This document shows positions 11,682 through 64,000 of a stretch of DNA of 64,000 bases, one piece after another (position 1 is the first letter of the stretch; every line of letters starts with the position of its first letter). Below the pieces are notes generated by a model that was not told the origin of the DNA, made no database searches, and saw only the letters and a list, made by a program, of their open reading frames with translations. Both the position numbers and the translations under genes were made by a program. Origin of the DNA: an uncultured Actinomycetes bacterium (GTDB lineage: Bacteria > Actinomycetota > UBA4738 > HRBIN12); assembly GCA_963810635.1 (NCBI GenBank), contig CAWEOB010000001.1, positions 141,751 to 205,750 of the forward strand. Direction: 5' to 3'.

Positions 11682-11682
11682 C

Positions 11683-15258: not shown

Positions 15259-15278
15259 CGGCGACCTCCTCCGGGACG

Positions 15279-17981: not shown

Positions 17982-18035
17982 CTGGTGAACCGTGGAGGCA
18001 TGCCGACTTCCGTCCGCACGCGGTCCGGTTCGTCG

Positions 18036-19193
18036 TCAGACGACGTGCAGCGTCGGTGCCTCGACGGCGGTCACCGTCCCTGGAAGCTCCACGACGAAGC
18101 GCGCGCCCCCTCCCGGGCGATCCTCCACGTGCGCGCTCCCGCCGTGCAGCTCCGCGAACCGGCGGACGAGCGAGAGCCCGATGCCCACCCCACCGCGTGA
18201 TTCCGCTCCCTGGCGGAACGGTTCGAAGATCTCGTCCTTGATCTCGTCCGGGACGCCGGGCCCCTCATCCTCCACGTGCAGGACCACGCCGTCGGGCCGC
18301 TCGAGCACCTCGATGTGGATCGGGGTCCCCTGCGGTGTGTGGCGCCCCGCGTTCCCCAGCAGGTTCTCGACGATCCGTTCGACCTTGGCGGCGTCGACCT
18401 CGACCAGGACGGGGTCACCTTCGACCCGCACCGGGTGGCCGGCGAGCGCCGGGACGTCGGCCGCTGCGCGCCGAGCCAGGTCCGCCACGTCGGTGGCGTC
18501 CCGATCCGGCTTCAGCTGGCCCCGGCGCAGACGGTCGAGGTCCAGGAGGTCGTCGACGAGCCGGGTCGCCTTCGCTCCCGCCTGCTCGATCACGCGGTAG
18601 AGATCCTCCAGCTCCTCGTCGGTGAGCACGAGCTGATCGGACCGCCGGATCGTCTGCATCGCCCCGAGGATGCCGGCGAGCGGGCCCTTCAGGTCGTGCG
18701 AGACGGCGTGGAGCAAGGTGTCCTTCATCTCGTTGCGCTGCTGCAGGTCATCGGAGCGCTCGGTCTCGAAGGCGAGCTGCATGCCCTGCTGCTTGACGGC
18801 CGACCGGAGGATCGACAGGAGCCACACGACGAAGACGAAGACGCCGAACCACACGACGGCGTTCCAGGACGGCACCAAGCCGTTGCTGAGGCCGACGGTC
18901 ACGTCGGCGGCCTGGGCGGCGATCGTGGCGAAGCCCGCGATCATCAGCCCCCAGGGGCGCCCGACGTTCCAGGTGACCAGGAGGATCGGCATCAGGTAGA
19001 ACGGCGCGAGCGAGAATCCCCACCCGGTCATGTAGTCGATCAACCCGACCACGACCACGAAGATCACGCTCAGGGCGACCACGGCCCACGCCGGGGCACC
19101 CGAGAAGAACCCGTCCAAGGGTGATGCGCGCGGCTTCTTCTTCCGGCCACGCTTCCCGCGCCCCGCGCGCTCATCCGTCTGGCGAAGACCCAT
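18036..19193 (-). CDS. membrane sensor histidine kinase (HisKA + HATPase_c); no adjacent response regulator
   Basis: H-box 'HAVSHDLKGPL', N-box 'ENLLGNAGRHT', G-boxes 'DEGPGVP' and 'GGVGIGLSLV'. The N-terminal 4-TM region resembles the KdpD-type DUF4118 membrane module (from memory). Confidence 0.8.
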   Translation of the reverse strand: MGLRQTDERAGRGKRGRKKKPRASPLDGFFSGAPAWAVVALSVIFVVVVGLIDYMTGWGFSLAPFYLMPILLVTWNVGRPWGLMIAGFATIAAQAADVTVGLSNGLVPSWNAVVWFGVFVFVVWLLSILRSAVKQQGMQLAFETERSDDLQQRNEMKDTLLHAVSHDLKGPLAGILGAMQTIRRSDQLVLTDEELEDLYRVIEQAGAKATRLVDDLLDLDRLRRGQLKPDRDATDVADLARRAAADVPALAGHPVRVEGDPVLVEVDAAKVERIVENLLGNAGRHTPQGTPIHIEVLERPDGVVLHVEDEGPGVPDEIKDEIFEPFRQGAESRGGVGIGLSLVRRFAELHGGSAHVEDRPGGGARFVVELPGTVTAVEAPTLHVV

Positions 19194-19280
19194 CGATGCA
19201 GTACTCGGCGGACCCCTCGCCTACCTTGAGTCGAGTAGTCGGGTGGCTCCGAGCGGGATCCCGGCGGGCGAGAGCCCAGG

Positions 19281-19880
19281 TCAGTCCGGGAGACGGCGGA
19301 GGGCTCGGAGCGCGCGTCCTCGATGGCTGATGCGGTCTTTGTCGGCGGGTTCGAGCTCGGCCATGGTCCGATCCCACCCCTCGGGGACGAAGATGGGGTC
19401 GTACCCGAAGCCCCCGCTCCCCCGGGGTGTCGTGAGGATCGTTCCCTCGCAGGTTCCCTCGGCGTGGATCACCCGTCCCTCAGGGGTGGCGAGGACCGCG
19501 AGGCAGCGGTACCGCGCGGTCCGTCCGCCGGACGGGATGCCGCGGACGGCTCGGATCAACTCCGCCAGGTTCCGCTCGTCGGTGGCCCCCGCCCCCGCGT
19601 ACCGAGCGCTGCGGACGCCGGGCGCCCCGCCGAGCGCGTCGACCTCGATCCCGGAGTCATCGGCCAGGGCCGGGAGACCTGCGGCGGCCGCGACCGCCAC
19701 GGCCTTCAACGTCGCGTTCTCCAGGTACGTGGCGCCGGTCTCCTCGACCTCGGGGAAAGCGTCCGGATCGTGGTTCTCGACCGTGAACCACCGCACGGGC
19801 CAGTCGGCCGCGATGCGGGTGATCTCCCTGATCTTGTGCGCGTTGCGGGTGGCGAGCGCGAGAGCGGGCGGGAGCTCCAC
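19281..19880 (-). CDS. rdgB: dITP/XTP pyrophosphatase (RdgB/HAM1 family)
   Basis: 'LATRNAHKIREI', 'TYLENATLKA', 'ALADDSGIEVDALGGAPGVRSARYAG', 'GFGYDPIF' and 'DRISHRGRALR'. GTG start at 19880, 4 nt after the rph stop. Confidence 0.85.
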   Translation of the reverse strand: MELPPALALATRNAHKIREITRIAADWPVRWFTVENHDPDAFPEVEETGATYLENATLKAVAVAAAAGLPALADDSGIEVDALGGAPGVRSARYAGAGATDERNLAELIRAVRGIPSGGRTARYRCLAVLATPEGRVIHAEGTCEGTILTTPRGSGGFGYDPIFVPEGWDRTMAELEPADKDRISHRGRALRALRRLPD

Positions 19881-19884
19881 GGCC

Positions 19885-20604
19885 TCAGGCGCCGAGCGCT
19901 TCGTCCTGGATCTTCGTGAGCCGGGCGATACCCCCGGCCGCCAGGTCGAGCATCGCGTCCAGCTGTGCCCGGGTGAACGGCTCACCTTCGGCGGTCCCCT
20001 GCACCTCCACCAGATCACCGGCGCCGGTCATCACCACGTTGAAGTCGACCTCGGCACCAGCATCCTCCTCGTAGCAGAGATCGAGCAGCGGCTCACCCGC
20101 GACGAGGCCGACCGAGACGGCGGCCACGCGATCGCGCAGGAGATCGTCCTCGACGAGTCCTTGCTCCGCGAGCCCCCGGATCGCGAGCGCGAGCGCGAGG
20201 TATCCGCCCGTGATAGATGCCGTCCGCGTGCCCGCGTCGGCCTGGAGGACGTCACAGTCGACCGTGATCACCCGCTCGCCCAGGCGGCGGAGGTCCGTGA
20301 CGCTCCGCAACGCACGGCCGATGAGCCGCTGGATCTCCTGCGTGCGCCCGCCCGGCCGTCCGCGGGTCACCTCGCGCTGCGAGCGCTCGGCGGTGGCCGC
20401 GGGCAGCATCGAGTACTCGCCCGTCACCCAGCCTTTCCCGGTGCCGCGGAGCCAGCGCGGAGGATCGTCGGCAACGCTCGCGGCGCACAGCACCCGGGTA
20501 CGTCCCATGGAGAGCAGCACCGAGCCGGCCGCCCACTCCTGGTAGCCGAGCTCGTAGGTGACGGGCCGGAGCTCGTCGGGGGCGCGTCCATCCGGACGCG
20601 TCAC
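19885..20604 (-). CDS. rph: ribonuclease PH
   Basis: 'RPDGRAPDELRPV', 'GSVLLSMGRTRVLCAASV', 'GWVTGEYSMLPAAT', 'GRTQEIQRLIGRALR' and 'DCDVLQADAGTRTASITG'. The GTG at 20604 overlaps the upstream stop (GTGA). Confidence 0.9.
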   Translation of the reverse strand: MTRPDGRAPDELRPVTYELGYQEWAAGSVLLSMGRTRVLCAASVADDPPRWLRGTGKGWVTGEYSMLPAATAERSQREVTRGRPGGRTQEIQRLIGRALRSVTDLRRLGERVITVDCDVLQADAGTRTASITGGYLALALAIRGLAEQGLVEDDLLRDRVAAVSVGLVAGEPLLDLCYEEDAGAEVDFNVVMTGAGDLVEVQGTAEGEPFTRAQLDAMLDLAAGGIARLTKIQDEALGA

Positions 20605-21353
20605 CCGCCGACCTCCCACGACGATCCCGGTGTCGCGACGTCGACGCGGCCGCGGAACACCGCGGCCGCCTCGTCGCGCGACCGCCCGCCGTCCAGCGAA
20701 GGCAGCAGGTGCGTGAGCACCAGGCTGCCGACGTCGGCCTTCGCGGCGTGCTCCGCGGCTTGCGCCGCGCTCAGATGGAAGTAGGTGAGATCCTCGCCGT
20801 TCTGGTAGCTGGCCTCGCACAGGAACAGGTCGGCGCCCCGGGCGAGCTCGACGGCCGCGTCGCACGGGCCGGTGTCGCCGGTGTACGCGAGCGTCGCGCC
20901 GCCCGCCTCGATCCGATACCCGAGCGACCGCACGCCGATGTGCGTCATCTCGTACGGCGTGATCCGGAACGGGCCGACCTCGAACGACGTTCCGTCGTGC
21001 GCCTCCGTGAAGGCGAACGCCTCCCCCATCACGTTGCGTCCGTTCTCCGACACCAGGAGGCTGGCGAGATCCGTGAACCCCTCGGGCGAGAAGAAGGGCA
21101 GGTTCGGTTCGCCCATCCCGCCGTAGTGGCGCGCGTAGAACGCCGGGATGATGTCGATGAAGTGGTCGGCGTGACCGTGCGAGATGGCGATGGCTCCCAC
21201 CTCCTCGACCCCCACGTGCTCCTGCAGCTTCGCGAAGGTCCCCGTGCCGGCGTCGAGCCACAGGTTGAAGCCGTCGTGGGAGACCAGGTACCCACAGCAC
21301 TCACCACCGGGCCCCGGCCAGGTGCCCTGAGCGCCCAACACCATCAGCCTCAC
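20601..21353 (-). CDS. MBL-fold metallo-hydrolase (Rv1339-like position between murI and rph)
   Basis: 250-aa ORF with the HxHxDH motif (ISHGHADHF). Its position between murI and rph matches the mycobacterial arrangement as I recall it. Confidence 0.8.
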   Translation of the reverse strand: MRLMVLGAQGTWPGPGGECCGYLVSHDGFNLWLDAGTGTFAKLQEHVGVEEVGAIAISHGHADHFIDIIPAFYARHYGGMGEPNLPFFSPEGFTDLASLLVSENGRNVMGEAFAFTEAHDGTSFEVGPFRITPYEMTHIGVRSLGYRIEAGGATLAYTGDTGPCDAAVELARGADLFLCEASYQNGEDLTYFHLSAAQAAEHAAKADVGSLVLTHLLPSLDGGRSRDEAAAVFRGRVDVATPGSSWEVGG

Positions 21354-22160
21354 GCGCGCACCTCGGCATCCAGGTGCACCGCGTCAACGTGATCGAGCTC
21401 GTGGCCGAGGAACAGCTCGGCCAGCCGGCGGAACGGGGCCACCTTGCCTGTGGTCAGGAAGCCGTGACGGGGCGGCTCGGCGTCGGTCCGGAGCCGGTCG
21501 CCGCGCACGAGCTCGGCGTAGACATCCTTCCCGGTCTCCTCGGCCGAGGAGACCAGCACGACGTCGGGCCCCATCTCCATCTGGAGGAGCCCCGACAGCA
21601 ACGGGTAGTGCGTGCAGCCAAGGATCAGCGTGTCCACTCCCTCGTCCTTCAGCGGTGCAAGATACCCTCGCGCGGCCCTCCGTAGCTCGTCGGAGGTGGT
21701 ATCGCCCCGCTCGACGTGCTCCACGAAGACCGGGCACGTGGCCGCGTGCAGCGTTGCCGCGGACCCGATGGCTCGTTGATAGGCCCCGGTCGCGAGGGTG
21801 GCCTCCGTGCCGATCACGCCGACGACACCGCTGCGCGTGGCCCGGATCGCGGCTCGTACGCCGGGGTTCACCACGCCCACGACCGGCACACCATGTTCCG
21901 AGGCGATGTCGCCGATCGCGCTCACCTCGATCGAGTTGCAGGCAACCACGAGCATCTTGACGCCGCGGTCCGCGAGGTAGCGCGCGATGGCAAGGGCGAA
22001 GCCCCGGATCTCCACCGACGGACTTCGGCCCGTAGGGGAAATGAGCCGCGTCGCCGACGTACAGGAGCGACTCGTTCGGGAGCTGGTCGAGGATGGCGCG
22101 AGCCACGGTGAGACCACCGACCCCTGAGTCGAACACCCCGATGGGGCGACTATCCGGCAT
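21350..22160 (-). CDS. murI: glutamate racemase (one frameshift near 22015 as sequenced)
   Basis: The N-terminus '[17 protein letters not shown]...[15 protein letters not shown]' (track ORF 21384..22160) joins '[14 protein letters not shown]...MLVVACNS...[11 protein letters not shown]' (track ORF 21350..22486). The length is 3n+1. Confidence 0.85.
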
Positions 22161-52076: not shown

Positions 52077-53105
52077 CTACGGCTTGCGCGCGGCCAGCGC
52101 GCTGATCGCCTCGAGCACGCACCGGTGCGCGAGCGCCGCGGTCACATCGGCGGTGTCGTACGGAGGCGAAACCTCGACCACGTCCATGCCCACGACCTCC
52201 ACCTGGCTGACGATCTGCCGGACAGCCCGGAGCAGCTCCCGCGGCAGCATGCCGCCCGGTTCGGGGGTCCCGGTCCCCGGGGCGCTCCCCGGGTCGACGA
52301 CATCGATGTCGATCGACAGGTAGATGCAGTCGGGCCCGTCCAGCGCCTCGACGATCGCCTCGGCGATCACGGCCTCGCTCCCCCGCTCCTCGATCTCGGT
52401 CATCCGGTGCCACCGCAGGCCGTGTGCGCGCATCCAGTCGAAGGTCGCCTCCTCGGGCCAGTACCCGCGGAGGCCGACCTGCACGAAGTTCCTCCCCTCG
52501 ACCCAGCCCTGCTCGATCAGATTGCGCATCGGTGTGCCGTGGCTGATGAGCGAGCCGTAGACCTCGAGAGAGGTGTCCGCGTGCGCGTCGAAGTGCAGGA
52601 GCCCGACCTTCCGAGGGTGGACGGCACGCGCCACCGCGGCACACGAGGGGTAGGTGATCGAGTGGTCGCCGCCCAGCACGATCGGGATGGCGCCCGTGCG
52701 TGCGACCCGCCAGACCTTCTCGTGCACGACGCGCAGCGCGCGCTCGAGGCGCGACGGCATGATCGGCGCGTCGCCCGCATCGACCGCCTTCACCTTGTCG
52801 AACAACGAGGTCTGGAGCTGGATCGACCAGAGATCGCCGGCGTGGTAGCTGGCCTGCCGGATCGCTCGCGGACCGAAGCGCGCACCGGCCCGGTTCGAGG
52901 CGCCGTCGTCGACCGGCGCCCCGATGATCGCGACCTCTGCTCCGAAGGTCGCGAGCTCGTCGTCGTCCGTGATGAGCGGGAGCTTCTGGAACGAGGTCGA
53001 GCCGACGTAGCTCGGCAGGTAGAAGTCGGGCGCCTCGTCGTACTCGATGTCACCGAGCAGCATCTCGGACGGATCGGGAAGGCGGAACTCACGCGGGTCG
53101 GTCAT
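52077..53105 (-). CDS. ureohydrolase (agmatinase / guanidino-acid hydrolase family)
   Basis: Arginase-fold Mn ligand motifs: 'LGGDHSITYP', 'HFDAHADT', 'SIDIDVVDPGSAPGTGTPEPGG'. Confidence 0.85.
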   Translation of the reverse strand: MTDPREFRLPDPSEMLLGDIEYDEAPDFYLPSYVGSTSFQKLPLITDDDELATFGAEVAIIGAPVDDGASNRAGARFGPRAIRQASYHAGDLWSIQLQTSLFDKVKAVDAGDAPIMPSRLERALRVVHEKVWRVARTGAIPIVLGGDHSITYPSCAAVARAVHPRKVGLLHFDAHADTSLEVYGSLISHGTPMRNLIEQGWVEGRNFVQVGLRGYWPEEATFDWMRAHGLRWHRMTEIEERGSEAVIAEAIVEALDGPDCIYLSIDIDVVDPGSAPGTGTPEPGGMLPRELLRAVRQIVSQVEVVGMDVVEVSPPYDTADVTAALAHRCVLEAISALAARKP

Positions 53106-53145
53106 CGCGCGAAGCTTGCCACACGCTCGCGTCGGCGGCGTGGTC

Positions 53146-54720
53146 TTACTTCTTCAGATCCTTGAGCAACTGCTTCGCCGCGTTCGCGCCCGGACCGCCG
53201 GTGATCCCGCCGCCGGGATGCGCGCCGGAACCGGCCAGGTAGAGACGATCCACCGCGAACCGGTACCGCGCTTCCTGGTTGAGGGGCCGCCAGGCGAACC
53301 ATTGATCCAGACCCGGTGCGGCGTGGAAGACGTCGCCGCCGGTGAGCCCATACCCGGTCTCGACGTCCTCGGGGGTCGTCACGGTCCGCGCCTCGACGAG
53401 CGAGGAGAGCCCCGGCGCGTACTGTTCCAGGGTCTTCAACACGATGTCGCCGAGCGACTCACGCTCCGACACCCAGGTCGAGTCTCGGAGGCTCCGCGGC
53501 GCCGCTTGGACGAGCACGCTCATCACGTGCTTGCCCTCGGGCGCCAGTGACGGGTCGCCGATCGACGGGATGGTGGCCTCGAGCATCGGGGAATCGGCCA
53601 GGACCCCGTACTTCGCCGCGTCCATCGCACGCTCCACGTCGTCGATGGACGGGCCGATCACGATCCGGCCGCCCAGCCGCTCGGCATCGGCTCCCGGGAA
53701 GACGGGCAGACCGCCCAGGGCGAGGTCGACCTTCGCGGTCGCCCCCGGCTGCCGGATGTTCTCGCCTCGCCACACCAAGGTGGGACCGAGCACCTCGGGA
53801 TCGACGAGCCGGAGCGTCCGCTTCGGATCGGCGGCCGAGACCACCACGTCGGCCGGCAGCTCGCTGCCGTCCGACAGCACGACCCCCGTGGCGCGATCGC
53901 CACGCGTGGCGATCGCGACCACCTCCGCCCCGGTCCGGATCGTGGCGCCGAAGGTCTGGGCGGCGGCGGCGAGCGCGCTCGCGAGCGCGCCGGTGCCGCC
54001 ACGGGCGAACGTCGACTGCCCCGCCGCTCCGCCGTCGTTGCCGGCCGCATCGTTCAGGAACACGGCCGCTGTCCCCGACGCCCAGGGGCCGTTGCTCGTG
54101 TACAGGACACCTCGCGTGGCGAGCGGACCACGGACCGCCTCGGACGCGAACACCTCGCCGACGAGGTCCGCGACAGCCATCGGCAGCGTGCGGATCGCCT
54201 CCCGGCCGGTCTTGGCGCCCAGGTCGCGGAACGCCTTCCCGAGCTTCAGCCCGGCGATCGCGTCGGCGATCGACGGCGAGCGCACGTCGGGCGGGGTCGC
54301 CACGTTCACGTACGCGAGGAAGCTGGCGATGGCGCGCACCTTCCGGTCGAAGGCGGGATACGCCTCGCCGTCGGCCGCCGACCGATCACGGAGCTCTGCG
54401 CCCGTCCGAGCCGCGTCGGCCCAGAACGTGACAGAGGTCCCGTCGGGCTGGGGTGCGAACGCGCGGACAGCGGGCTCGATGGGCTCGTAGCCGTGACGGT
54501 CGAGCTCGAGATCGCGGACGACCGTGGGCCGCAGACGCCCGACCGTGTGGGCGAGCCCGGGAGCCGTGAAGCCGTCGGCCAGCGGCACGGGACGGAGGAT
54601 GCCGCCGACCTCGTCGGCACGCTCAACCACGGTCACGTGACGTCCAGCTTTCGCGAGGTACGCCGCCGCGACCAGCCCGTTGTGGCCGGCGCCGATGACG
54701 ACGATCCGCTCCTTGGACAT
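53146..54720 (-). CDS. NAD(P)/FAD-dependent oxidoreductase, phytoene-desaturase (CrtI)/PYROXD2 family, paralogue A
   Basis: Intact 524-aa ORF. 'RIVVIGAGHNGLVAAAYLAKAG' and C-terminal 'LYLAGSGAHPGGGITGGPG'. The ATG at 54720 overlaps the stop of paralogue B (ATGA). Confidence 0.8.
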   Translation of the reverse strand: MSKERIVVIGAGHNGLVAAAYLAKAGRHVTVVERADEVGGILRPVPLADGFTAPGLAHTVGRLRPTVVRDLELDRHGYEPIEPAVRAFAPQPDGTSVTFWADAARTGAELRDRSAADGEAYPAFDRKVRAIASFLAYVNVATPPDVRSPSIADAIAGLKLGKAFRDLGAKTGREAIRTLPMAVADLVGEVFASEAVRGPLATRGVLYTSNGPWASGTAAVFLNDAAGNDGGAAGQSTFARGGTGALASALAAAAQTFGATIRTGAEVVAIATRGDRATGVVLSDGSELPADVVVSAADPKRTLRLVDPEVLGPTLVWRGENIRQPGATAKVDLALGGLPVFPGADAERLGGRIVIGPSIDDVERAMDAAKYGVLADSPMLEATIPSIGDPSLAPEGKHVMSVLVQAAPRSLRDSTWVSERESLGDIVLKTLEQYAPGLSSLVEARTVTTPEDVETGYGLTGGDVFHAAPGLDQWFAWRPLNQEARYRFAVDRLYLAGSGAHPGGGITGGPGANAAKQLLKDLKK

Positions 54721-56322
54721 CAGGCCGCCCGCCGGCCCTTCTTCTTCTCCTTCAGGTACTCGAGCGCGGCCAGGCGCCCGTTCGCGCCCATGATGCCGCC
54801 GCCGGGATGCGTGGCGGAGCCGCACATCCAGAGGTCCTTCACCGGGGTCCGGTAGCGGGCCCAGCCCGCCACCGGCCGGTTGAAGAAGAGCTGCTCCAGC
54901 GAGAGCTCGCCCTGGAAGATGTTGCCCTCGGTGAGCCCGGTCCAGTCCTCGATGTCCTTCGGCGACAGCACGAGCCGGTGGAGGATCTTCGAGCGGATGT
55001 CGGGGAACCGCTCCTCGAGCGTGTCGATGACCGTCTCCGCGAAGTCGTCGCGCATCCGGTCGTCCCACTCCTTGCCCGGCTCGAGCTTGTACGGCGCGTA
55101 CTGCACGAAGCACGACATCACGTGCTTGCCGGGGGGCGCCATCGACGGGTCGACGAGCGTCGGGATGATGCAGTCGATGTACGGGCGGCGGCTGAACCGT
55201 CCGTACTTGGCGTCGTCGTAGGCCCGCTCCATGTAGTCGAGCGAGGGACTGAACGAGATGGCGCCCCGGAGCCACGGCCCGACCCCGGGCTTGCAGGCGA
55301 GCTCGGGCAGGCCGTCGAGCGCCAGGTTCACCTTGCCGCTCGAACCGCGGAACTTGTACCGGCGCACCTCGGCCTCGAAGTCCGGATCGAGCGTGCCGGA
55401 CTCGAGCAGCTTCAGGAAGGTCAGGTTCGCGTCCACGGACGACATCACGACGCCCGCCTCGATCTCCTCACCGGTCCCGAGCGCCACGCCCACCGCGCGG
55501 CCGCCCTTCACGATCACGTTCGACACCGGTGCCTCGGTCCGGATCTCCACGCCCAGCCCGAGCGCCGCGTCCGCGATCGCGTACGAGATGCCGCCGGTGC
55601 CGCCCCGCGGGATCCCCCACGCGCGGAACGCGCCGTCGATCTCACCCATGTAGTGATGCAGGAGCACGTACGCGGTGCCCGGCGAACGCGGTCCCTGGAA
55701 GGTCCCGATGATCCCCGAGGCGCTCATCGTTGCCTTCAGCGGCTCGGTCTCGAACCACTGCTCGAGGAACTCTGCGGCGCTCATGGTCATCAGCTGGATG
55801 AAGCAGGTCTGGAGCCGCTCGGGGAAGTCGCTTGAAGTCCTTCGCGAGGCCGGTGAGCGGGAGCCAGTCGAGCGGGCTGATCTTCCCCGGGTCCGGCGGG
55901 ACGATCGACAGGATCGGCTTGATGAACCGGGCCATCTCGGCCATGAGCATCGAGTACTCGCCGTAGGCCTCGGCGTCGTTCAGCGACCACCGGCGCAGCT
56001 CGCGGACCGTCTTGCCGTGGTCGTTCACGCGCCAGAGGTAGTCGTCGTCGAGCGGTGTGATGGTGCCGTCGAGCGGAGAGATCTCCAACCCGTGCTTCGG
56101 GAGCTCCAGCTCACGGATGATCTCGGGCCGGAGCAGCGAGACGACGTACGACATGGCGGAGAAGCGGAACCCCGGGAAGTGCTCGACGGTGGTCGCGGCG
56201 CCGCCGAGGATCGGGTTCTTCTCGAGGACCAGCACGGACTGACCGGCCTTCGCGAGATAGGCGGCCGTCGTGAGGCCGTTGTGACCCCCGCCGATCACGA
56301 CGGCGTCGTACCGCCTGGCCAT
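54720..56322 (-). CDS. NAD(P)/FAD-dependent oxidoreductase, PYROXD2 family, paralogue B (one frameshift at the C4/G4 run 55821-55824)
   Basis: ATG at 56322 after GGAGGAGG. 'YDAVVIGGGHNGLTTAAYLAKAG...SYVVSLLRPEIIRELELPKHGL' (track ORF 55642..56394) joins 'ERLQTCFIQLMTMSAAEFLEQWFETEPLKAT...YVLLHHYMG...LWMCGSATHPGGGIMG' (track ORF 54720..55790). These blocks closely resemble human PYROXD2 as I recall it. Confidence 0.8.
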
Positions 56323-56444
56323 CGACCCTCCTCCTGGACGCAGACCCCGCGGCACCCGGACGAACCGCGCCGCACGCCGGCAGCGACGCCCCATCGGCGC
56401 CGGTCCGCATGGTAAACGGGCACCTCCGGACCCGACCCGCGCAC

Positions 56445-56470
56445 CCTGACCTCAGGTCAGGTGTCAGGTG
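56445..56470. promoter_or_regulatory. perfect palindrome plus an extra half-site in a divergent promoter region (candidate operator)
   Basis: CCTGACCT c AGGTCAGG at 56445-56461 is followed immediately by tGTCAGGTg. It lies in the 183-nt spacer between paralogue B (-) and the GcvT-like gene (+), about 35-60 nt upstream of ATG 56506. Confidence 0.3.
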
Positions 56471-56505
56471 CCGCCCACGGAGTGCCCTGGCTACGCTACG
56501 CCGCG

Positions 56506-57699
56506 ATGACGGTCGGCACCGCGTTCTATCAGCGACAGCAGGAGCTCAACACGAAGCTCGCCTGGGGTGAGTGGTCGGGCTACCACGCCCCCGCGGTCTA
56601 CGCGGACTTCCACGACATCGAGTACAACGCGGTGCGCGAAGCGGCGGGCGTGATCGATACGTCGCCCCTGTACAAGTACGTCGTGCGGGGTCCCGACGCG
56701 GGCCGGCTCATGGACCGCGTGATGACCCGCGACATCGCGAAGCTCCGTGTCGACCGCGTCTTCTACACACCGTGGTGCGACGAGGACGGCAAGCTCATCG
56801 ATGACGGGACCATCGCCAGGATCGCCGACGACGCTTACCGCGTCACCGCGGCCGACCAGACCCGGCGGTGGTTCCTGATGAACGCCACGGGCCTCGACGT
56901 CGAGATCGACGACGTGACCGACACCCTTGCGGCGCTGGCGCTCCAGGGGTTGCTGTCCCGCGAGGTCCTGCACAAGGCCACGGGTGAGGACTGGTCCGAT
57001 GTCCCGTACTTCGGTCGCCGGATGACAACGATCGCGGGCATCGAGGTGGACGTGACACGCACGGGCTACACGGGCGACCGTGGTTTCGAGCTCTGGATCC
57101 CGGTCGACGGCGCGCTCGCCGTGTGGGATGCGGTGTTCGCGGCCGGTGCCGACTACGGGATCCACCCGGTCGGGATCCGCGCGTTGGACGTCTGCCGCGT
57201 GGAGGCCGGGCTGATCCTCGCTGAGGTGGAGTTCTCGAGCGCCCGCCACGTGACGGCACCCGAGCTCAAGTACTCACCGTTCGAGGTGGGCCTCGGCCGC
57301 CTCGTCGCGTTCGACAAGGCGGCACCGTTCGTCGGCAAGCGGGCCTTGCTCGCCGAGCGTTCGGCGGGTGGACCGGCGCGCCGCCTCGTCGGCCTCGAGC
57401 TCGATTGGAGCGGAATCGAGGGCCTCTACGCGAAGCACGACCTCGCCCCCGGTGTGTCCCCGCTCGTCCACCGCGATCCGGTGCCTGTGTTCAAGGAGGG
57501 CAGGCAGGTCGGCCGCGCCACCTCGATCACCTGGGGACCTACGATCAAGAAGATGGTCGGCTTCGGGAGCGTCGACAAGGGCTTGAGCGCGCCCGGCACC
57601 CGGGTCAGCGTGGAGTGGAGCGTCGAGGGTGAGCGCGGGAAGGTCGGGGCCACGGTGGTGCCGACCCCGTTCCTCGACCTCGAGCGCAAGCGCACCTGA
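56506..57699 (+). CDS. aminomethyltransferase-family (GcvT-like, folate-binding) protein
   Basis: ATG at 56506 (MTVGTAFYQR...). 'EYNAVREAAGVIDTSPLYKYVVRGPDA', 'TRTGYTGDRGFELW' and 'AGLILAEVEF' are GcvT-fold hallmarks. Confidence 0.8.
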   Translation: MTVGTAFYQRQQELNTKLAWGEWSGYHAPAVYADFHDIEYNAVREAAGVIDTSPLYKYVVRGPDAGRLMDRVMTRDIAKLRVDRVFYTPWCDEDGKLIDDGTIARIADDAYRVTAADQTRRWFLMNATGLDVEIDDVTDTLAALALQGLLSREVLHKATGEDWSDVPYFGRRMTTIAGIEVDVTRTGYTGDRGFELWIPVDGALAVWDAVFAAGADYGIHPVGIRALDVCRVEAGLILAEVEFSSARHVTAPELKYSPFEVGLGRLVAFDKAAPFVGKRALLAERSAGGPARRLVGLELDWSGIEGLYAKHDLAPGVSPLVHRDPVPVFKEGRQVGRATSITWGPTIKKMVGFGSVDKGLSAPGTRVSVEWSVEGERGKVGATVVPTPFLDLERKRT

Positions 57700-57765
57700 C
57701 CAGCACCGGAACTCCACACGGCGCTTGGCTGTCTCGACGCTCCGTTCTGCCACCATAGGAACGGC

Positions 57766-59667
57766 GTGAACACCACCCGCATCCCTCGCACCCTCGTCGT
57801 CTTCGTGCTGGCCGGAGGCTTGGCCACGCTCGTCGTGACGTTCTCCGGGAGCCTCGTGGTGGGCCTCGCGACGGGTCTCGCTGTGTGGCTCATCGCGATG
57901 CTCCTGATCTGGTCGGTGGACCGCCGCGGCACGCTGGGCGGCGCCCACGACGCCTCCCGTCGGCGCTTCCTCCTGGGCGCCAGCCTGGGCGGTCTCGCTC
58001 TCGTTGCCGGAGGAGCGGCCCTCGGGCGCACGCTCGCCAAGCTCGCCCGGCCCGATGCGATCGCGGCCCAGGACGCGGGCGCGACGCGGCTCGGCGCCGA
58101 GTACATGGAGCTGGTCAGGCGCGCCTACCGCAAGGGGCGTTCTGCCGAGCTACAGCTGGTGGTTGCCCCGTTCAACAGCGCGAACTACCCGCCGGAGTCG
58201 CGCTCCCTGTTGCCGAAGGACCCGAGGACCAGCCACGCGGCCCCGTGGATGTACCTGGAGCGGATCCCGCTCGTCGTCTACGGTCCCGGCGTCGTCGAGC
58301 CCGGCGACAACGATGATCGCGTCACGCTCGCCGACCTGGCGCCGACCACCGCCGAGCTCATCGGCTTCGACACCTGGCCGGCCGATCGCGCCGGCCGGGC
58401 CCTGCCGGGCCTTGGGACCACCGGCGTGACTCCGAAGGTCGTCGTGACGTTCGTGATCGACGGCGGCGGTTGGAACGTCCTCGACCACTGGCCCGACGAC
58501 TGGCCCACGCTCAAGCGCCTGATGGGCGAAGGCATGCACTACCGGGACGCGATCACCGGCTCGTTCCCCGCGGTCACGGCGGCGGCGCACGCCACGATCG
58601 GCACCGGAACCTTCCCGAACGAGCACGGGATCACGGGCCACAACATCCGCGACGGTGCGAACCCGCGGAAGGCCTACCGCGATCGTGGCCTCGCGGATCC
58701 CACCGACATCCTGGTCCCGACCCTGGCGGACCTCTGGCACGACGAGACCGGCGCGTGGGTCGGTGAGGTCGGCTACCAGGTCTGGCACCTGGGGATGCTC
58801 GGACGCGGAGGGACCCAACGACCGGCGGGCGACCTCCCGGTCGCGATCTACTTCGATGAGGACGATGAGTTCGGCGGCGGCTGGGTGCCGCACAACCCCG
58901 AGCTGTACCGGATGCCGGCGCGGTGGCCCGGTCTCGAGGTGTTCGAGGCGCGGGTGGCGGCCGACGACTCGTCGATCTCGGACGAGGAGTACGCGCGATG
59001 GGGGAACCCGTACTGCTGCGCGCCGCCGATCGCGGGCTACCAGACCGACCTGCTCGAGCTCACGCTCGACTCGGAGCCCGTGGGCGCCGACGCCACCGGC
59101 TTGCTGTACACCACGTACAAGGCCCCGGACTACACCGGTCACGTCTACGGGATGTTCTCCGAGCAGACCGCCCTCATGCTCCACGCGGTCGACGACGAGC
59201 TGGCGCGGATGGTGGACATCCTCGAGGAGTGCTACCCCGGCGAGTACGTGCTCATCATCACGGCTGATCACGGACAATGCCCGCTCCCCGATGCGGCCGG
59301 GGGCGTGCGCCTGGATCCGATCCAGCTCGAGAGCGTGATCGAGCAGGAGTTCGGCGCGGGGATCGCCGACGCGGTCCAGAACGTCTACCCGAGCGAGGTC
59401 TACCTGGATGTCCCCGGGCTCCGAGACGCCGACGCAACCCCTGATGACGTGGCCGCGTTCCTCGAAGGGCTGACGTACCGGCAGAACCTCGGTCCGTACG
59501 TGCCCGAAGACGCGATCCAGCAGGATCTGCTCGACCGGCGGGAGTTCGCAGCGGTGTTCTCCACCACGTGGCTCGATGAGCTCGGCGACACGAGCGCGTA
59601 CGGCGACACCGAGTACGCCGGGGCGGACGTGGACCCGGGCGTTCCGCCCGCGTCCGTCATCGGCTGA
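57766..59667 (+). CDS. alkaline-phosphatase-superfamily protein (type I phosphodiesterase/nucleotide pyrophosphatase-like), exported
   Basis: 633 aa. N-terminal TM helices then a Tat-like 'SRRRFLLGASLGGLALVAGGAALG'. 'FPAVTAAAHATIGTGTFPNEHGITGHNI' (nucleophile Thr region) and 'LIITADHGQ'. Confidence 0.7.
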   Translation: MNTTRIPRTLVVFVLAGGLATLVVTFSGSLVVGLATGLAVWLIAMLLIWSVDRRGTLGGAHDASRRRFLLGASLGGLALVAGGAALGRTLAKLARPDAIAAQDAGATRLGAEYMELVRRAYRKGRSAELQLVVAPFNSANYPPESRSLLPKDPRTSHAAPWMYLERIPLVVYGPGVVEPGDNDDRVTLADLAPTTAELIGFDTWPADRAGRALPGLGTTGVTPKVVVTFVIDGGGWNVLDHWPDDWPTLKRLMGEGMHYRDAITGSFPAVTAAAHATIGTGTFPNEHGITGHNIRDGANPRKAYRDRGLADPTDILVPTLADLWHDETGAWVGEVGYQVWHLGMLGRGGTQRPAGDLPVAIYFDEDDEFGGGWVPHNPELYRMPARWPGLEVFEARVAADDSSISDEEYARWGNPYCCAPPIAGYQTDLLELTLDSEPVGADATGLLYTTYKAPDYTGHVYGMFSEQTALMLHAVDDELARMVDILEECYPGEYVLIITADHGQCPLPDAAGGVRLDPIQLESVIEQEFGAGIADAVQNVYPSEVYLDVPGLRDADATPDDVAAFLEGLTYRQNLGPYVPEDAIQQDLLDRREFAAVFSTTWLDELGDTSAYGDTEYAGADVDPGVPPASVIG

Positions 59668-59691
59668 CCGGCCCATGCCATCATCCGCGCC

Positions 59692-60950
59692 ATGGCGCTG
59701 GCGCTGACCACCGACGAACGCGCGCTCCTCGACGAACCGTCGTCCGCCACCGCGATGCGCATCCTCGTCGAGATGGCCGAGGTGATGGGTGCCCGGCACC
59801 TCGTGCCGATCACCCGTGCCCACATCGATAGTTGCCTGTACCACGGGCTCGCCGGGGTGGACTTCGCCGAGCGCTTGGCGGCCGAGGGCGCGCGGGTCCG
59901 GGTCCCGGCCACCCTCAACGTGGCGGCCCTCGACCTGCTGCACCCGGGGCTGGTCCGGCTGGATGTCGCCACCGCCGAGCTCGCGAAGCGCCAGATGGAC
60001 GCCTACGTCGCGATGGGATGCCGGCCCACCTGGACGTGCGCGCCCTATCAGCTCGCCGACCGGCCGGCACCCGGGGAACAGATCGCCTGGGCGGAGTCGA
60101 ACGCGATCGTGTTCGCGAACTCCGTGTTGGGCGCGCGGACCGAGCGGTACGGCGACTTCCTCGACATCTGCTGCGCGATCGCCGGGAGGGCGCCGTCCGT
60201 CGGGATGCACACCGACGGGGGGCGGCGCGCGCGGCTCGTCGTCGACGCGTCGGCCGTGCCGCCGCGCCTCCTGCGGGAGACGGCCGGCGCGGCTGCGCTC
60301 GGCCATCTCCTCGGGAAGCGAGCGGGCACGGCGGTGGCAGCGATCGTCGGCCTGCCGGCGGAGATCGGCGAAGACGCGCTGAAGGCGCTCGGGGCCGCCG
60401 GCGCCTCATCGGGTCCGTCGCCCTGTTCCATGCCGTGGGGGTCACGCCGGAAGCGCCGACCTTGGAGGCCGCCACCGGCGGGGGCACCGACCTCCCCCAG
60501 GTCACCGTTGCGCTCGCCGACCTCCGCCGGGCCCGGGACGAGCTCTCCACGGTCGCGGGCGGCGCCGTCGGCGCCGTCGGTGCCGTCACGCTTGGCACGC
60601 CGCACGCGTCCGCCGCGGAGCTCGCCCGACTCGTCGATCTGGTTGAGGGTTCGCCGCCGACGATCCCCTTCTACGTGAACCTGGGCCGCGACACGCTCGC
60701 GGGTGCCGGTGCGGATGCCGCCGAGCGACTCACGGCGGCCGGGGTCCAGTTGGTCACCGACACGTGCGCCTACCTCGCCCCGGTGATCCACGACGTCGAG
60801 GGAGCGCTGATGACCGACTCGGCGAAGGCCGCCTGGTACGCGCCTGCCAACCTGGGCGTCGAGACGGTCTTCGGGACGACCGACGAGTGCGTCCGCACGG
60901 CGGCCGTGGGCGCCCTGTGGCGCGACCGGGAGCTGTGGGGCGATGCCTGA
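59692..60950 (+). CDS. aconitase X catalytic subunit (DUF521; one frameshift near 60414)
   Basis: 'ITRAHIDSCLYHG', 'TWTCAPYQL', 'AWAESNAIVFANSVLGARTERYGDFLDICCAI'. The C-terminal part 'SVALFHAVGVTPEAP...VTDTCAY...MTDSAKAAWY' is in the frame of track ORF 59832..60950. The length is 3n+2. Confidence 0.8.
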
Positions 60951-61365
60951 TCTCGACGTGCTCGTCGGCGGCACCGCCGAGGGCGACGTCCTGACGCTGG
61001 ACGAGCCGCTCAGCCTGTGGGGCGGTCTCGACCCCTCGACCGGCGACGTGATCGACGTTCGACACCCGCAACGAGGCGCCCGGGTCGCCGGGCGTATCCT
61101 CCTCCTCCCGGGAGGCCGTGGGTCCAGCTCGAGCTCCACGATCCTCGCCGAAGCGATCCGTGCGGGGACCGCGCCCGCGGCCATCGTCCTGGGGGAACCG
61201 GACCCCATCCTGGCGCTCGGGGCGATCGTGGGCCGCGAGCTCTATCGGATCACCGTGCCCGTCGTGGTGGCCAACCCTGCCACCTACGCGGTGGTGACGG
61301 CCTGGGAGCGGGTCCGCGTCGACAGGAACACCATCGAGCAGGTGAAGGATCGGCCCAGCCCGTGA
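60943..61365 (+). CDS. aconitase X swivel-domain subunit (DUF126)
   Basis: 140 aa. 'GEGDVLTLDEPLSLWGGLDPSTGDVIDVRHPQRG...GRILLLPGGRGSSSSSTILAEAIRAGTAPAAIV'. It overlaps the large-subunit gene by 8 nt. Confidence 0.8.
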   Translation: MPDLDVLVGGTAEGDVLTLDEPLSLWGGLDPSTGDVIDVRHPQRGARVAGRILLLPGGRGSSSSSTILAEAIRAGTAPAAIVLGEPDPILALGAIVGRELYRITVPVVVANPATYAVVTAWERVRVDRNTIEQVKDRPSP

Positions 61366-61460
61366 CGCCGGGTCACCACCCTCGTTGACCGCCTCCGCGC
61401 GGCGCAACTAGCGTCCCACCCGTCCCGCGACCGTGGAGGCACCCCCAGGATGCACGTCCG

Positions 61461-63065
61461 ATGACCACGACCATCTACGACGCGATCGTGGTGGGAGGAG
61501 GCCACAACGGCCTGACCGCTGCCGCGTACCTGGCGCGCGGCGGTCTCCGCACGCTGGTCCTGGAACGGCGGGACATGGTGGGGGGGGCCTGCGTCACGGA
61601 GGAGATCGCGCCCGGGTGCCGAGCCTCGACGACGTCGTACATCGCGTCGATGCTGCGTCCGGAGGTGATCCGCGACCTCCGTCTCGCCAAGCACGGGTTG
61701 CGCATGGTTCCGTGCGAGCCGGGGCTCCAGGCGGCGTTCGAGGACGGCACGGTCCTCCCCTGGTGGACCGATCACGCACGCACCGTCCAGGAGTGGTCCA
61801 CGATCAGCCCCACCGACGCCAAGACGTTCGACCGGGTCGACCGTCGGCTGAAGCAGCTGGTCCGGTACCTCCAGCCGTTCTTCCTCGAAGCGCCGCCGAA
61901 CGTCCATGCGCGCGGCCTCGAGAAGCTCCGTGAGGGCTGGAGGGTCGGCCGGCGCGTCCGGAAGATCCAGGGCGACGAGATCACGGACCTCGTGGAGTTC
62001 CTCACCGGGTCGCTCGGCGACTTCCTCGACCGGCACTTCGAGCACGACAAGATCAAACGGATGTACCTGGCCAACAACGTCTACGGGATGCACTCGCCCC
62101 CCTACCGGCCGGGGACCGCCATCGGCTTGCTGTTCCACCTGCTTTCCGGAGGCAGCGACGACGTCCAGGGCTGGTTCGGGCACGTGATCGGCGGCATGGG
62201 CTCGATCACGCAGGCCATGGCCGCTGCCGCCCGGGAGTACGGTGCGGAGATCAGGGTCGAGACGCCGGTCTCCAAGATCCTGGTCACCGGCGGGCAGGCC
62301 AGCGGGGTCGTGCTCGAGGACGGGACCGAGCTCCGATCCCGCGTGGTGGTGTCGAACGCCGACCCCAAGCGCACGTTCCTCGGGCTGATGGACGAGGGCG
62401 ACCTCCCGGGCGACTTCCGGCGCGCGGTGGCCGACATCAAGATGGCCGGCCCCTGCGCCAAGGTGAACCTCGTGCTGTCGGAGGAGCCTCGCTGGACGGG
62501 GATGCCCGCCGGCGCCGACGCCAACCGCCGCTCCTTCGCCACGCTCGTCCCCACCCTGGAGGCGGCGGAGCGGATGTACGACGTGGCGAAGTGGGGTGAG
62601 ATCCCCGACGAGCTCTGGGTGGATTGCGTGGTCGCCTCGAACGTCGACGACTCGCTCGCCCCGCCCGGCGTCCACATCATGACCTGCTTCGTGCAGTACG
62701 TGCCGTACGAGCTGCGCCACGGGTCGTGGGACGAGGAACGCGACGTCCTCGGCGCGCGGGTCCTCGAGCAGATCGGGCGCTACGCGACGAACGTCCCCGG
62801 AGCGGTGCAGGCGATGCAGGTCGTGACGCCGCTCGACCTCGAACGCACCTACGGACTGACCGAGGGCAACATCTTCCACGGGGACCTCAACATCCAGCAG
62901 CTGTTCTTCATGCGGCCGGTACCGGGGTGGTCCGACGCCACCACGCCGGTCCGGGGGCTCTACCTGTGCGGTGCCGGGGTCCACCCGGGGGGTGGCGTGA
63001 CGGGTGCACCCGGGTACATCGCCTCGCACCGCGTCCTGCGCGATGCGAAGAGGGCGCGTCCGTGA
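61461..63065 (+). CDS. NAD(P)/FAD-dependent oxidoreductase, PYROXD2 family, paralogue C
   Basis: Intact 534-aa ORF. 'YDAIVVGGGHNGLTAAAYLARGG...SYIASMLRPEVIRDLRLAKHGL', 'GLTEGNIFHGDLNIQQLFFMRPVPGW', 'LYLCGAGVHPGGGVTGAPG'. Its TGA (63063-63065) overlaps the soxD GTG (63062). Confidence 0.85.
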   Translation: MTTTIYDAIVVGGGHNGLTAAAYLARGGLRTLVLERRDMVGGACVTEEIAPGCRASTTSYIASMLRPEVIRDLRLAKHGLRMVPCEPGLQAAFEDGTVLPWWTDHARTVQEWSTISPTDAKTFDRVDRRLKQLVRYLQPFFLEAPPNVHARGLEKLREGWRVGRRVRKIQGDEITDLVEFLTGSLGDFLDRHFEHDKIKRMYLANNVYGMHSPPYRPGTAIGLLFHLLSGGSDDVQGWFGHVIGGMGSITQAMAAAAREYGAEIRVETPVSKILVTGGQASGVVLEDGTELRSRVVVSNADPKRTFLGLMDEGDLPGDFRRAVADIKMAGPCAKVNLVLSEEPRWTGMPAGADANRRSFATLVPTLEAAERMYDVAKWGEIPDELWVDCVVASNVDDSLAPPGVHIMTCFVQYVPYELRHGSWDEERDVLGARVLEQIGRYATNVPGAVQAMQVVTPLDLERTYGLTEGNIFHGDLNIQQLFFMRPVPGWSDATTPVRGLYLCGAGVHPGGGVTGAPGYIASHRVLRDAKRARP

Positions 63066-63292
63066 GCCTGCGGCTCCCCTGCACGCACTGCGGCGACCGA
63101 CCGTTCACGGAGTTCACGTTCGGCGGTGAGGTCCGCCCGGTCGACGCTCCGGATCCGGACGCGGACTTCGCCCGCGTCTTCCTGCGCGAGAACGTCGCCG
63201 GGATCCAGGAGGAACGCTGGTTCCATGCGATGGGCTGCCGTCGATGGCTCACCCTGCATCGCGACACCGTGACGAACCGGATCGTCGGCTGA
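63062..63292 (+). CDS. soxD: sarcosine-oxidase delta-subunit family protein
   Basis: GTG at 63062, in the frame of track ORF 62624..63292. 'LPCTHCGDRPFTEFTFGGE...ERWFHAMGCRRWLTLHRDTVTNRI' matches the SoxD Cys3His zinc motif and spacing. Confidence 0.8.
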   Translation: MSLRLPCTHCGDRPFTEFTFGGEVRPVDAPDPDADFARVFLRENVAGIQEERWFHAMGCRRWLTLHRDTVTNRIVG

Positions 63293-64000
63293 TGGGGGCG
63301 ATCGACTTCGAAGGGAAGCCCGTCGCGGTCGAGGACGGCGACTCCGTGGGCTCCGCGCTCTTCCGTGCGGGGGTCCGGACCTTCACGAGGTCGCTGAAGT
63401 CGCACCGCCGGCGCGGCCTGTACTGCGTCACGGGCGACTGCGCGAACTGCCTGGTGACCGTCGATGGCGTGCCGGGCGAGCGTGCATGCGTCACCGACGC
63501 GCGCGACGGGATGCACGTGGAACGGGAGACCGGCTGGCCGTCGACCGATCACGACGCGCTGGCTGTCGCCGACCACCTCCACTGGGCGATGCCCGTCGGC
63601 TTCTACTACAAGACGTTCGTCCGACCACGGGCTGCATGGGAGGCTGCGGAGAAGGTCGATCCGTCGCGCGACCGGAACGGGGCGGCTGCCGCTCGACCGG
63701 CAGGTCGAGCCGAAGCCGACCCGGTACGCGCGCGCCGAGGTGCTCGTGATCGGTGGGGGGCCGGCGGGGTTGGCGGCCGCGGCCGAGGCCGCGGCCGCCG
63801 GTGGCCGGGTCCTGCTCGCGGACGAGGGTGTGCCCGGCGCGATGCTCGCGCCGGGTCCCACCCTCGACGCGGTCCACCGGCTCGCGGGGGACGTCCACCG
63901 GGCGGGGGTGGAGGTCCTCGTCCGGCACGCCGCGATCGGGATCTACGAAGGGCCGAGCGTCCCCCTGCTCGGCCCGCAGGAGCTCGTCGAGGTCGAGGCC
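63292..64000 (+). CDS. SoxA/HcnA-like 2Fe-2S + FAD/NAD(P)-binding subunit (partial at window end; one frameshift near 63658)
   Basis: This ORF is not in the track because it is open-ended. The ATG at 63292 overlaps the soxD TGA. 'IDFEGKPVAVEDGDSVGSALFRAGV...GLYCVTGDCANCLVTVDGVPGERAC' gives a Cx4Cx2Cx11C pattern. After a frame change the sequence reads 'RYARAEVLVIGGGPAGLAAAAEAAAAGGRVLLADE' (a Rossmann motif). Confidence 0.7.
   Translation, partial: MGAIDFEGKPVAVEDGDSVGSALFRAGVRTFTRSLKSHRRRGLYCVTGDCANCLVTVDGVPGERACVTDARDGMHVERETGWPSTDHDALAVADHLHWAMPVGFYYKTFVRPRAAWEAAEKVDPSRDRNGAAAARPAGRAEADPVRARRGARDRWGAGGVGGRGRGRGRRWPGPARGRGCARRDARAGSHPRRGPPARGGRPPGGGGGPRPARRDRDLRRAERPPARPAGARRGRG

Follow-up and report, generated by a model that had tools for sequence, protein, structure and literature searches.

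In dimethylglycine and sarcosine dehydrogenases (DMGDH, SARDH) and trimethylamine N-oxide (TMAO) demethylase (Tdm), a catalytic module makes an iminium or formaldehyde equivalent, which a GcvT fold then passes to tetrahydrofolate (THF). The proline-betaine pathway employs the Rieske proteins HpbB/C together with a flavin-dependent demethylase, HpbA (PMC3950512). Both the logic of a flavoprotein working with a GcvT fold and that of a Rieske enzyme followed by a flavoenzyme are already known (PMC3950512). The mitochondrial flavoprotein PYROXD2, the loss of which is reported to cause disease (PMC8777681), had no assigned reaction as late as 2026 (PMC13352909), and our literature search found none either. 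Here, we describe three PYROXD2-like genes, termed paralogues A, B and C, and their neighbours in a 64,000-nucleotide stretch of DNA from an uncultured Actinomycetes bacterium (contig CAWEOB010000001.1, positions 141,751 to 205,750; this whole stretch is hereafter called the window, and its own numbering is used throughout). The reading that we favour, and hold to be reasonably probable, is that proteins of the A, B and C types are FAD-dependent enzymes oxidising N-methyl groups (C–N bonds) in the catabolism of betaines and N-methyl amino acids, with the one-carbon (C1) unit captured on THF; we infer this chemistry from comparative genomics. An earlier model reading of the window, made without database searches (the sequence-only reading), had proposed a catabolic island for an N-methylated or guanidino compound. 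The N-methyl/C1 part of that proposal is well supported by the comparisons below, whereas the guanidino part is not; the gene order and the paralogues it described proved to be real, whereas frameshifts and small details had to be corrected.

Paralogue A (53146..54720, minus strand) is an intact open reading frame (ORF) of 524 amino acids and paralogue C (61461..63065, plus strand) an intact ORF of 534, both at the positions previously given and both with Amino_oxidase/NAD_binding_8 domains. Paralogue B (54720..56322, minus strand), formerly taken as one gene, is a real paralogue but not a single ORF: its 1603 nt are read as two ORFs, the frame of 55642-56394 giving the N-terminal part and that of 54720-55790 the C-terminal one, and they encode 533 amino acids once an inserted base at ~55830 is removed. 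The orthologue of B is intact in L001, a long-read contig from ENA that is collinear with the window over 53.5-64 kb at ~81% nucleotide identity, and is ~94% identical on either side of the break. The start codon of B, the ATG at 56322, is preceded by AGGAGGAGGG; its stop shares one base with the start of A (TGATG, not the ATGA overlap described before), and A is translationally coupled to B. The three proteins can be aligned end to end with pairwise identities of 35-39%, and, as the sequence-only reading had seen, they share blocks at both ends, GxGHNGL towards the N-terminus and HPGGG towards the C-terminus. Of the PYROXD2 motif blocks which it had given for both B and C, EQWFETEPLKAT and YVLLHHYMG are present exactly in B, whereas their counterparts in C, DRHFEHDKIKRM and IGLLFHLLSGG, have diverged. 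The family-invariant residues (numbered on window B, WIN_B) are all kept in B and some are changed in C, while A has lost Y59, S62, T179 and H223, all of them invariant in B, C and PYROXD2; the losses include the second His of the LLHH motif.

The resemblance to PYROXD2 is borne out by full-length BLASTP alignments with the mouse protein (P0224), which gave identities of 39% for B (E 3e-126), 38% for C (E 2e-121) and 35% for A (E 3e-86); the PYROXD2 database sequences are so named by NCBI and UniRef. This full-length similarity is well above that to any characterised family. The best PDB match by sequence is CrtI, with an E value of 6e-17 covering half the protein. Against the crtI_fam profile (TIGR02734, cut-off 238.1 bits), A scores 137.0, C 128.8, the two halves of B 85.2 and 35.1, and mouse PYROXD2 117.2, all below the cut-off, and against the CrtO profile (cut-off 1000 bits) A and C score 218-237 bits and the separately scored halves of B lower. 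An AlphaFold2 (AF2) model of C (predicted local distance difference test, pLDDT, 85.9) gave CrtD 4rep as its top Foldseek match (E 1e-25, TM 0.78/0.85), with CrtI 4dgk also matched, at structural-alignment identities of only 16-18%; the next matches are flavin amine oxidoreductases such as NicA2, putrescine oxidase and MAO. Thus, C is predicted to have the three-domain FAD/Rossmann fold of the CrtI/CrtD type, a prediction which confirms the superfamily fold only. Many members of this CrtI/flavin amine oxidase superfamily oxidise C–N bonds.

A neighbour-joining tree of 52 representatives (100 bootstraps) places A, C and B in separate clades with bootstrap values of 100, 100 and 95, respectively. 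The B clade joins (96) a small B-like group which has a GcvT-like neighbour without an A partner, and eukaryotic PYROXD2 falls into a group with sequences of Planctomycetota and a few others (53%), which is sister to the B supergroup (71%). Because of these separate clades, A, B and C of the window are paralogues of eukaryotic PYROXD2, none of them orthologous, with B the nearest. As the tree has no CrtI, CrtO or RetSat root, separation from the carotenoid families was judged by NCBIfam cut-offs. Among the bacterial members of the PYROXD2 subclade found in species loci, 10 of 12 have no Rieske, Sox or GcvT-like neighbour, the exceptions being L082 (Rubrobacter, with a Rieske neighbour) and the second gene of L019. 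At nine loci of this subclade the flanking ORFs, read by eye only, are heterogeneous (hydrolases, an oxidoreductase, an ABC component). The L019 locus, from a metagenome-assembled genome (MAG) of Emcibacter sp., carries within 10000-21560 a C-type gene, two GbcA-like Rieske genes, soxA, soxD, a DAO/soxB-like gene and the PYROXD2-subclade gene.

The genomic context of the paralogues was compared in the 80 loci listed by a scan of GTDB species representatives, in which at least 600 stretches were matched, at least 592 of them confirmed relatives. The loci were annotated by tblastn with the window proteins, and flanking ORFs were clustered de novo, with cluster representatives run against Pfam and NCBIfam. 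Counted at a minimum of 60% identity, B orthologues occur in 46 GTDB species loci from Acidobacteriota, Gemmatimonadota and Dormibacterota, and in all 46 a second paralogue (of the A clade or other) lies within 600 nt downstream of B, at a median gap of 33 nt. A GcvT-like gene is found within 1.5 kb of B in 42/46 loci, divergent in 35 and co-directional in 7 (Gemmatimonadota), and the same divergent arrangement of gcvT-like and B-A is also present in ~40 metagenome contigs of the window's own lineage. Independent, Pfam-annotated gene calls show the order AA_permease / GCV_T, then, divergently, B-A-PurU. Other recurrent neighbours of B-A are GbcA-like Rieske oxygenases (17/42), APC amino-acid permeases (18/42) and PurU (8), and in several loci B-A adjoins a pyrroline-5-carboxylate (P5C) dehydrogenase which passes its curated cut-off. 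The best NCBIfam match of the Rieske neighbours is GbcA, the glycine betaine monooxygenase, at 127-220 bits against a cut-off of 670. For one Acidobacteriota B alone, at least 120 protein clusters were found at 87% identity or more. A simpler version of the module is seen in L055, L068, L073 and L081 (Chloroflexota, Actinomycetota), where just one B-like gene (47-49% identical to B) stands co-directionally behind a gcvT-like gene, and an A partner is absent. Among these carriers is Nocardioides sp. SR21; as the only match not labelled a MAG, it may be in culture and could then be of use for experiments.

The GcvT-like protein of the window is encoded at 56506..57699 (plus strand), divergently from B as the sequence-only reading had described, and is a THF-binding aminomethyltransferase-family protein with GCV_T (4.5e-60) and GCV_T_C domains, both near full length (PF01571 profile positions 3-244 of 255; PF08669 15-80 of 80). 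Its start is likelier the ATG at 56506 than the GTG at 56461, because of the L001 orthologue. The protein scores below the cut-offs for genuine GcvT (PRK00389, 209.6 vs. 300; TIGR00528, 157.5 vs. 235.85), so its sequence argues that it is not a canonical T-protein, and neither gcvH nor gcvP was found in the annotated loci. Among NCBIfam models it is matched best by that of the TMAO demethylase C-terminal domain, and the closest PDB entry is likewise Tdm (9q5a, 3.6e-46), followed by T-protein, SoxA, DMGDH and dimethylglycine oxidase (DMGO).

Paralogue C belongs to a different context: there are two separate modules, gcvT-like/B/A and C, and not a single set of three interchangeable oxidases. 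In the window, C is the first gene of a C-soxD-soxA series. The sarcosine oxidase delta subunit gene soxD (63062..63292, plus strand; PF04267 5.8e-22) overlaps the end of C and its product is 83% identical to the SoxD of L001. The 5′ part of the alpha subunit gene soxA (63292..64000, plus strand) has a frameshift near 63659 and continues past the window end; with L001 SoxA as tblastn query, residues 1-122 and 126-236 align in different frames. The order in L001 is C-soxD-soxA-soxG-soxB, with soxG and soxB lying beyond the point where the window ends, and the C-soxD-soxA order is shared by the window, L001, L004, L005 and nine metagenome contigs. The idea that C replaces SoxB in a novel sarcosine oxidase was rejected, because L001 has soxB (though frameshifted) after C-soxD-soxA-soxG. 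Within 5 kb of C, 19 species loci (Actinomycetota, Acidobacteriota, Dormibacterota and Pseudomonadota) have GbcA-like Rieske proteins (14), DAO proteins (9), BHMT-like S-methyltransferases (7), divergent TetR regulators (7) and SoxD/A (3). The DAO neighbour is a 400-amino-acid relative of N-methyltryptophan oxidase, SoxB and monomeric sarcosine oxidase. In the Pfam annotation of L166, an operon C-DAO-S-methyl_trans-Rieske lies opposite TetR-Rieske-AA_permease, and in L165 S-methyl_trans overlaps C. Taken over both modules, the conserved neighbours appear from their sequences to belong to N-methyl and C1 metabolism (GcvT-like, SoxD/SoxA, DAO, GbcA-like Rieske, BHMT-like and PurU), and the gcvT-like/B-A arrangement and the contexts of C recur in several phyla, so the neighbourhood is conserved well outside this genome.

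A palindrome, TGACCTCAGGTCA, is located at 56447..56459 (no strand assigned) within the 183-nt intergenic region between the divergent B and gcvT-like genes, where it is a candidate operator, with one match in the window vs. 0.08 expected. With at most one mismatch, it has 28 matches in 2.2 Mb of related loci vs. 1-7 in shuffled sequence, and 25/28 copies lie within 450 nt upstream of the starts of B, C, GcvT-like or TetR genes. The conserved palindrome, TGACCTnAGGTCA, stands before both modules in Actinomycetota, Acidobacteriota and Dormibacterota, and the copies include those in the intergenic regions between divergent TetR and C genes in Acidobacteriota, one Dormibacterota genome and one Streptosporangiaceae genome. 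Sites in relatives include L001 3030-3042, L015 9857-9869, L007 9867, L017 9862 and L027 9888, among others. This shared operator-like palindrome argues for co-regulation of the two modules; as it stands before both, they probably form one regulon, and the divergent TetR would be the candidate regulator acting through the palindrome.

Put together as a mechanism, the locus would join two conserved catabolic modules for N-methylated amino compounds, i.e., betaine-type osmolytes and their partly demethylated products. In the first, B and its degenerate partner A may form a heteromeric FAD enzyme that oxidises an N-methyl amino acid, secondary or tertiary, at its N-methyl C–N bond, and the stand-alone GcvT-like protein would take the resulting iminium or formaldehyde equivalent onto THF. 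In the second, C would carry out a middle demethylation, with dimethylglycine to sarcosine as the leading candidate, at a step that comes after a quaternary-amine demethylase of the Rieske or BHMT-like type and before sarcosine oxidase or DAO. Both modules would answer to one regulator via the palindrome TGACCTnAGGTCA. Glycine betaine derivatives, N-methylproline and methylated basic amino acids are all possible substrates.

Several observations weigh against this proposal. The nearest solved folds are carotenoid desaturases, and structure alone cannot separate C–N from C–C chemistry. At most loci, C is without its own GcvT-like partner. The neighbours point in several directions: to glycine betaine, to proline (P5C dehydrogenase, X-Pro peptidase) and to basic amino acids (aminotransferase class III, arginase). 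Acidobacteriota supply 37/46 of the B-A species loci, and therefore the counts are not phylogenetically independent. In the present sequence, B, the AcnX large subunit gene and soxA are out of frame, and a search of the 64 kb of the window for Rieske, BHMT-like, APC permease, PurU, TetR, DAO and P5C dehydrogenase genes of the types conserved elsewhere found none; the remaining genes of the window are unrelated. Finally, the literature search found no characterised bacterial PYROXD2 homologue, and no assayed enzyme of the subfamily described.

Among the other explanations, the one that survives best, although we consider it unlikely, is that PYROXD2-like proteins act in the same pathways without being N-methyl oxidases. 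They might instead oxidise an alcohol, an aldehyde, a ring C–N or a C–C bond, as in a choline-oxidase-like or proline-dehydrogenase-like step, or be redox partners, with direct demethylation by the GcvT-like protein in the manner of DmdA or LigM. The GcvT family does include flavin-independent methyl transferases to THF, and the DmdA and LigM/DesA models match the GcvT-like protein sub-threshold; the P5C dehydrogenase genes beside B-A in several loci and the C–C desaturases as nearest solved folds also fit this explanation. However, a flavoprotein and a GcvT-type protein are tightly paired across phyla, which mirrors the domain logic known from DMGDH, DMGO, SoxA and Tdm, the best relatives of the GcvT-like protein in structure and sequence, and in L166 C sits between BHMT-like and Rieske genes and a sarcosine-oxidase-like DAO, where a second demethylase is needed.

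The guanidino/ureido part of the sequence-only reading, which would put the ureohydrolase, AcnX and the alkaline-phosphatase-family protein in one pathway with the three oxidases, is improbable. An arginase/agmatinase-family ureohydrolase (52077..53105, minus strand; PF00491 8.8e-88) does follow B-A on the same strand, 40 nt downstream of A, and scores above the cut-off of the agmatinase profile TIGR01230 (194.7 bits vs. 174.3) but below that of NF002564 (224.5 vs. 302). The gene lies directly after A in L098 as well, and is syntenic after A in ~25 related metagenome contigs (63-80% identity); in L002 and L003, an arginase and a creatinase-family gene are 8-10 kb from the C orthologue. However, the arginase of these ~25 contigs is always accompanied by unrelated MoxR and pyridoxal phosphate (PLP) decarboxylase genes, and in some contigs an S51-like ORF intervenes between A and arginase. 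In L087, this ORF, recognised by eye only as S51 peptidase/cyanophycinase-like, is at ~11600-12270, and many other relatives have a gap of similar size between A and arginase; an S51-like ORF would, if real, tie the arginase to dipeptide or arginine use and not to B-A. No arginase linked to B-A or C was found in the loci of Acidobacteriota, Gemmatimonadota, Dormibacterota and Pseudomonadota. With its synteny limited to the window's own lineage, the membership of the arginase in the module is doubtful.

An alkaline-phosphatase-superfamily phosphodiesterase of 633 amino acids (57766..59667, plus strand; PF01663 Phosphodiest 4e-31) follows the gcvT-like gene. Described before as exported, it has hydrophobic segments at its N-terminus and a twin-arginine-like SRRRFLLGAS motif, consistent with a membrane-anchored or exported protein. 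Its operon position between gcvT-like and C/sox is peculiar to the window lineage: it lies beside gcvT-like in ~20 metagenome contigs (62-68% identity) and is absent in other phyla. As a speculation, such an NPP-type phosphodiesterase might free choline or another amine head-group from phosphodiesters. The large subunit of AcnX (59692..60950, plus strand), with a 1-nt deletion near 60413 that splits profile positions 2-241 and 239-400 between two frames, and its small (swivel) subunit (60943..61365, plus strand; PF01989 1.9e-26) precede C in the order previously given; in L001, the large subunit is intact, with 416 amino acids. The AcnX pieces score 248.5, 94.1 and 135.4 bits against the cis-3-hydroxy-L-proline dehydratase profile NF051439, below its cut-off of 700. 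AcnX occurs only in the window and L001, other relatives having none between the phosphodiesterase and C. Two extra genes without a Pfam match (335 aa, minus strand; 324 aa, plus strand) lie at 7886-9920 of L001 between the AcnX small subunit gene and C, and are absent from the window. Many contigs of the lineage keep the order soxA-soxD-C-phosphodiesterase-gcvT-like, then divergently B-A-arginase-MoxR...PLP decarboxylase, and the arginase and phosphodiesterase genes vanish once the identity of the A homologue falls below ~60%. Because of this loss in distant loci, and the absence of AcnX from the contigs of relatives, gcvT-like/B/A and C(+sox) would be the conserved cores, with arginase and AcnX of doubtful relevance.

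It is likewise quite improbable that the locus is decaying, with B, the AcnX large subunit gene and soxA as true pseudogenes and the island non-functional in this organism, although three single-base frameshifts within 8 kb invite the thought. Relative to the intact L001 orthologues, B has one extra base at ~55830 (the indel being placed by alignment) and the AcnX large subunit gene lacks one near 60413, and soxA has one extra base near 63659 relative to L001. The halves of all three genes keep 75-94% protein identity to intact orthologues without stop codons, and other genes of the window are split alike: a DUF885 gene (profile positions 1-223 and 225-529 in different frames), DUF58 and TgpA genes, and a dihydropyrimidinase region with multiple breaks. 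Apart from the three sites just named, breaks are found at 33929, ~49483, ~50272 and 12800-16200. The dihydropyrimidinase belongs to a putative reductive pyrimidine cluster, the genes of which were recognised by eye only. The closest relatives of the window, which has a G+C content of ~70%, are Flye-style long-read contigs from uncultured soil Actinomycetota (the top protein match of C is at 88% identity), and L001 has frameshifts of its own in soxA, soxG and soxB. Since unrelated genes are split in the same way and both halves of the broken genes remain so similar to their orthologues, the frameshifts are probably long-read assembly errors, in the pattern of an unpolished assembly, with a small residual chance of real pseudogenes.

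Last, ordinary CrtI-type carotenoid or isoprenoid desaturases in a coincidental neighbourhood, as the database name 'phytoene dehydrogenase-like', the best NCBIfam matches (CrtO, crtI_fam) and the best folds (CrtD, CrtI) would have it, are very improbable, and a check of this point turned out against them: scores are far under the curated cut-offs, identity to PYROXD2 is full length whereas the match to CrtI is partial, no crtB, crtE or crtY was found in the Pfam-annotated loci or in those conserved ORF clusters of 83 loci that were annotated, and the conserved neighbours are N-methyl/C1 enzymes. Thousands of database entries carry this label, which is probably misleading.

If A, B and C do act as N-methyl-oxidising flavoenzymes, there are consequences both for soil bacteria and for the human protein. 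Betaines are major osmolytes and sources of carbon and nitrogen in soil, and gcvT-like/B/A is a widespread soil module that may be a missing step in their turnover. As to the human protein, the PYROXD2 locus carries some of the strongest human metabolite quantitative trait loci (mQTLs), and the sequence-only reading was right to tie it to methylated amines, as the metabolites behind these mQTLs are N-methylated: trimethylamine and dimethylamine (PMC3169529), N-methylpipecolate (PMC5780481) and N2-acetyl-N6,N6-dimethyllysine (PMC13352909). The human mQTL missense variant p.Met461Thr (rs2147896) (PMC5780481) falls on the variable position x of a Q-Y-x-P-Y motif (residue 461 of P0122 and P0224; WIN_B 407-411). 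Q, Y, P and Y around this residue are conserved in all bacterial clades, and apes and mouse have Thr at the variable position. The bacterial contexts narrow PYROXD2 from an 'unknown oxidoreductase' to a short list of reactions on N-methylated amino compounds. Tentatively, and as something we would not yet bet on, the PYROXD2 family may be a second, independently evolved class of flavoenzymes demethylating N-methyl amines and amino acids, which in bacteria would act either as a heteromer of B and A accompanied by a separate GcvT-type THF protein, or as C working before sarcosine oxidase. By extension, the demethylase still missing for free N-methylated lysine, pipecolate or related amines could be mitochondrial PYROXD2. 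Such a role would explain its strong metabolite QTLs and would match an old orphan activity, 'N6-methyl-lysine oxidase'. The locus had been offered before as a functional lead for the eukaryotic orphan, and it is a reasonable one, but it is indirect and rests on paralogy, because the bacterial sequences that cluster with PYROXD2 are different ones, most of which are without this context.

We finally compare the locus with the systems it most resembles. Mammalian PYROXD2 has the motifs GHNGL, QWFE(S/T)EPLKAT, YVLLHH, QYxPY and HPGGG in common with the window proteins, at the full-length identities of 35-39% given above; however, it belongs to a different subclade, the bacterial members of which mostly lack a GcvT/Rieske/Sox context (10/12). 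CrtI and CrtD have the same fold (predicted) and the same Amino_oxidase Pfam domain, whereas A, B and C fall below the crtI_fam cut-off and are without a carotenoid gene context. Tdm, too, demethylates an N-methyl compound and captures the C1 unit, and its C-terminal THF-binding domain is the nearest solved and NCBIfam relative of the GcvT-like protein; the window protein, however, matches that C-terminal part only (Tdm residues 410-784), the catalytic part of Tdm being its N-terminal metal-dependent domain. The heterotetrameric sarcosine oxidase SoxBDAG resembles the second module in that soxD and soxA directly follow C and in that SoxA has the same THF-binding fold, whereas C is an extra upstream gene and genuine heterotetrameric sarcosine oxidase (TSOX) is without a CrtI-family subunit. 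In the proline-betaine and GbcAB pathways, as proposed here, a Rieske oxygenase takes the first methyl of the betaine and a flavoenzyme the next. However, the Rieske neighbours found here are below the GbcA cut-off, and HpbA, described as a flavin-dependent enzyme, probably belongs to a different family than A, B and C. A further parallel is with DMGDH, SARDH and DMGO, which also combine FAD-dependent N-methyl oxidation with C1 capture on THF by a GcvT-type fold, and the C-terminal domains of DMGDH and DMGO are matched by the window GcvT-like protein (5l46, 1pj5). In these enzymes, a DAO-family domain is fused to the GcvT domain in one chain, whereas here a pair of CrtI/PYROXD2-family paralogues is accompanied by a separate, usually divergent GcvT-like gene. 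Thus, while the underlying logic is familiar, a CrtI/PYROXD2-family flavoprotein in the form of a two-paralogue pair with a free GcvT-like protein appears to be undescribed.

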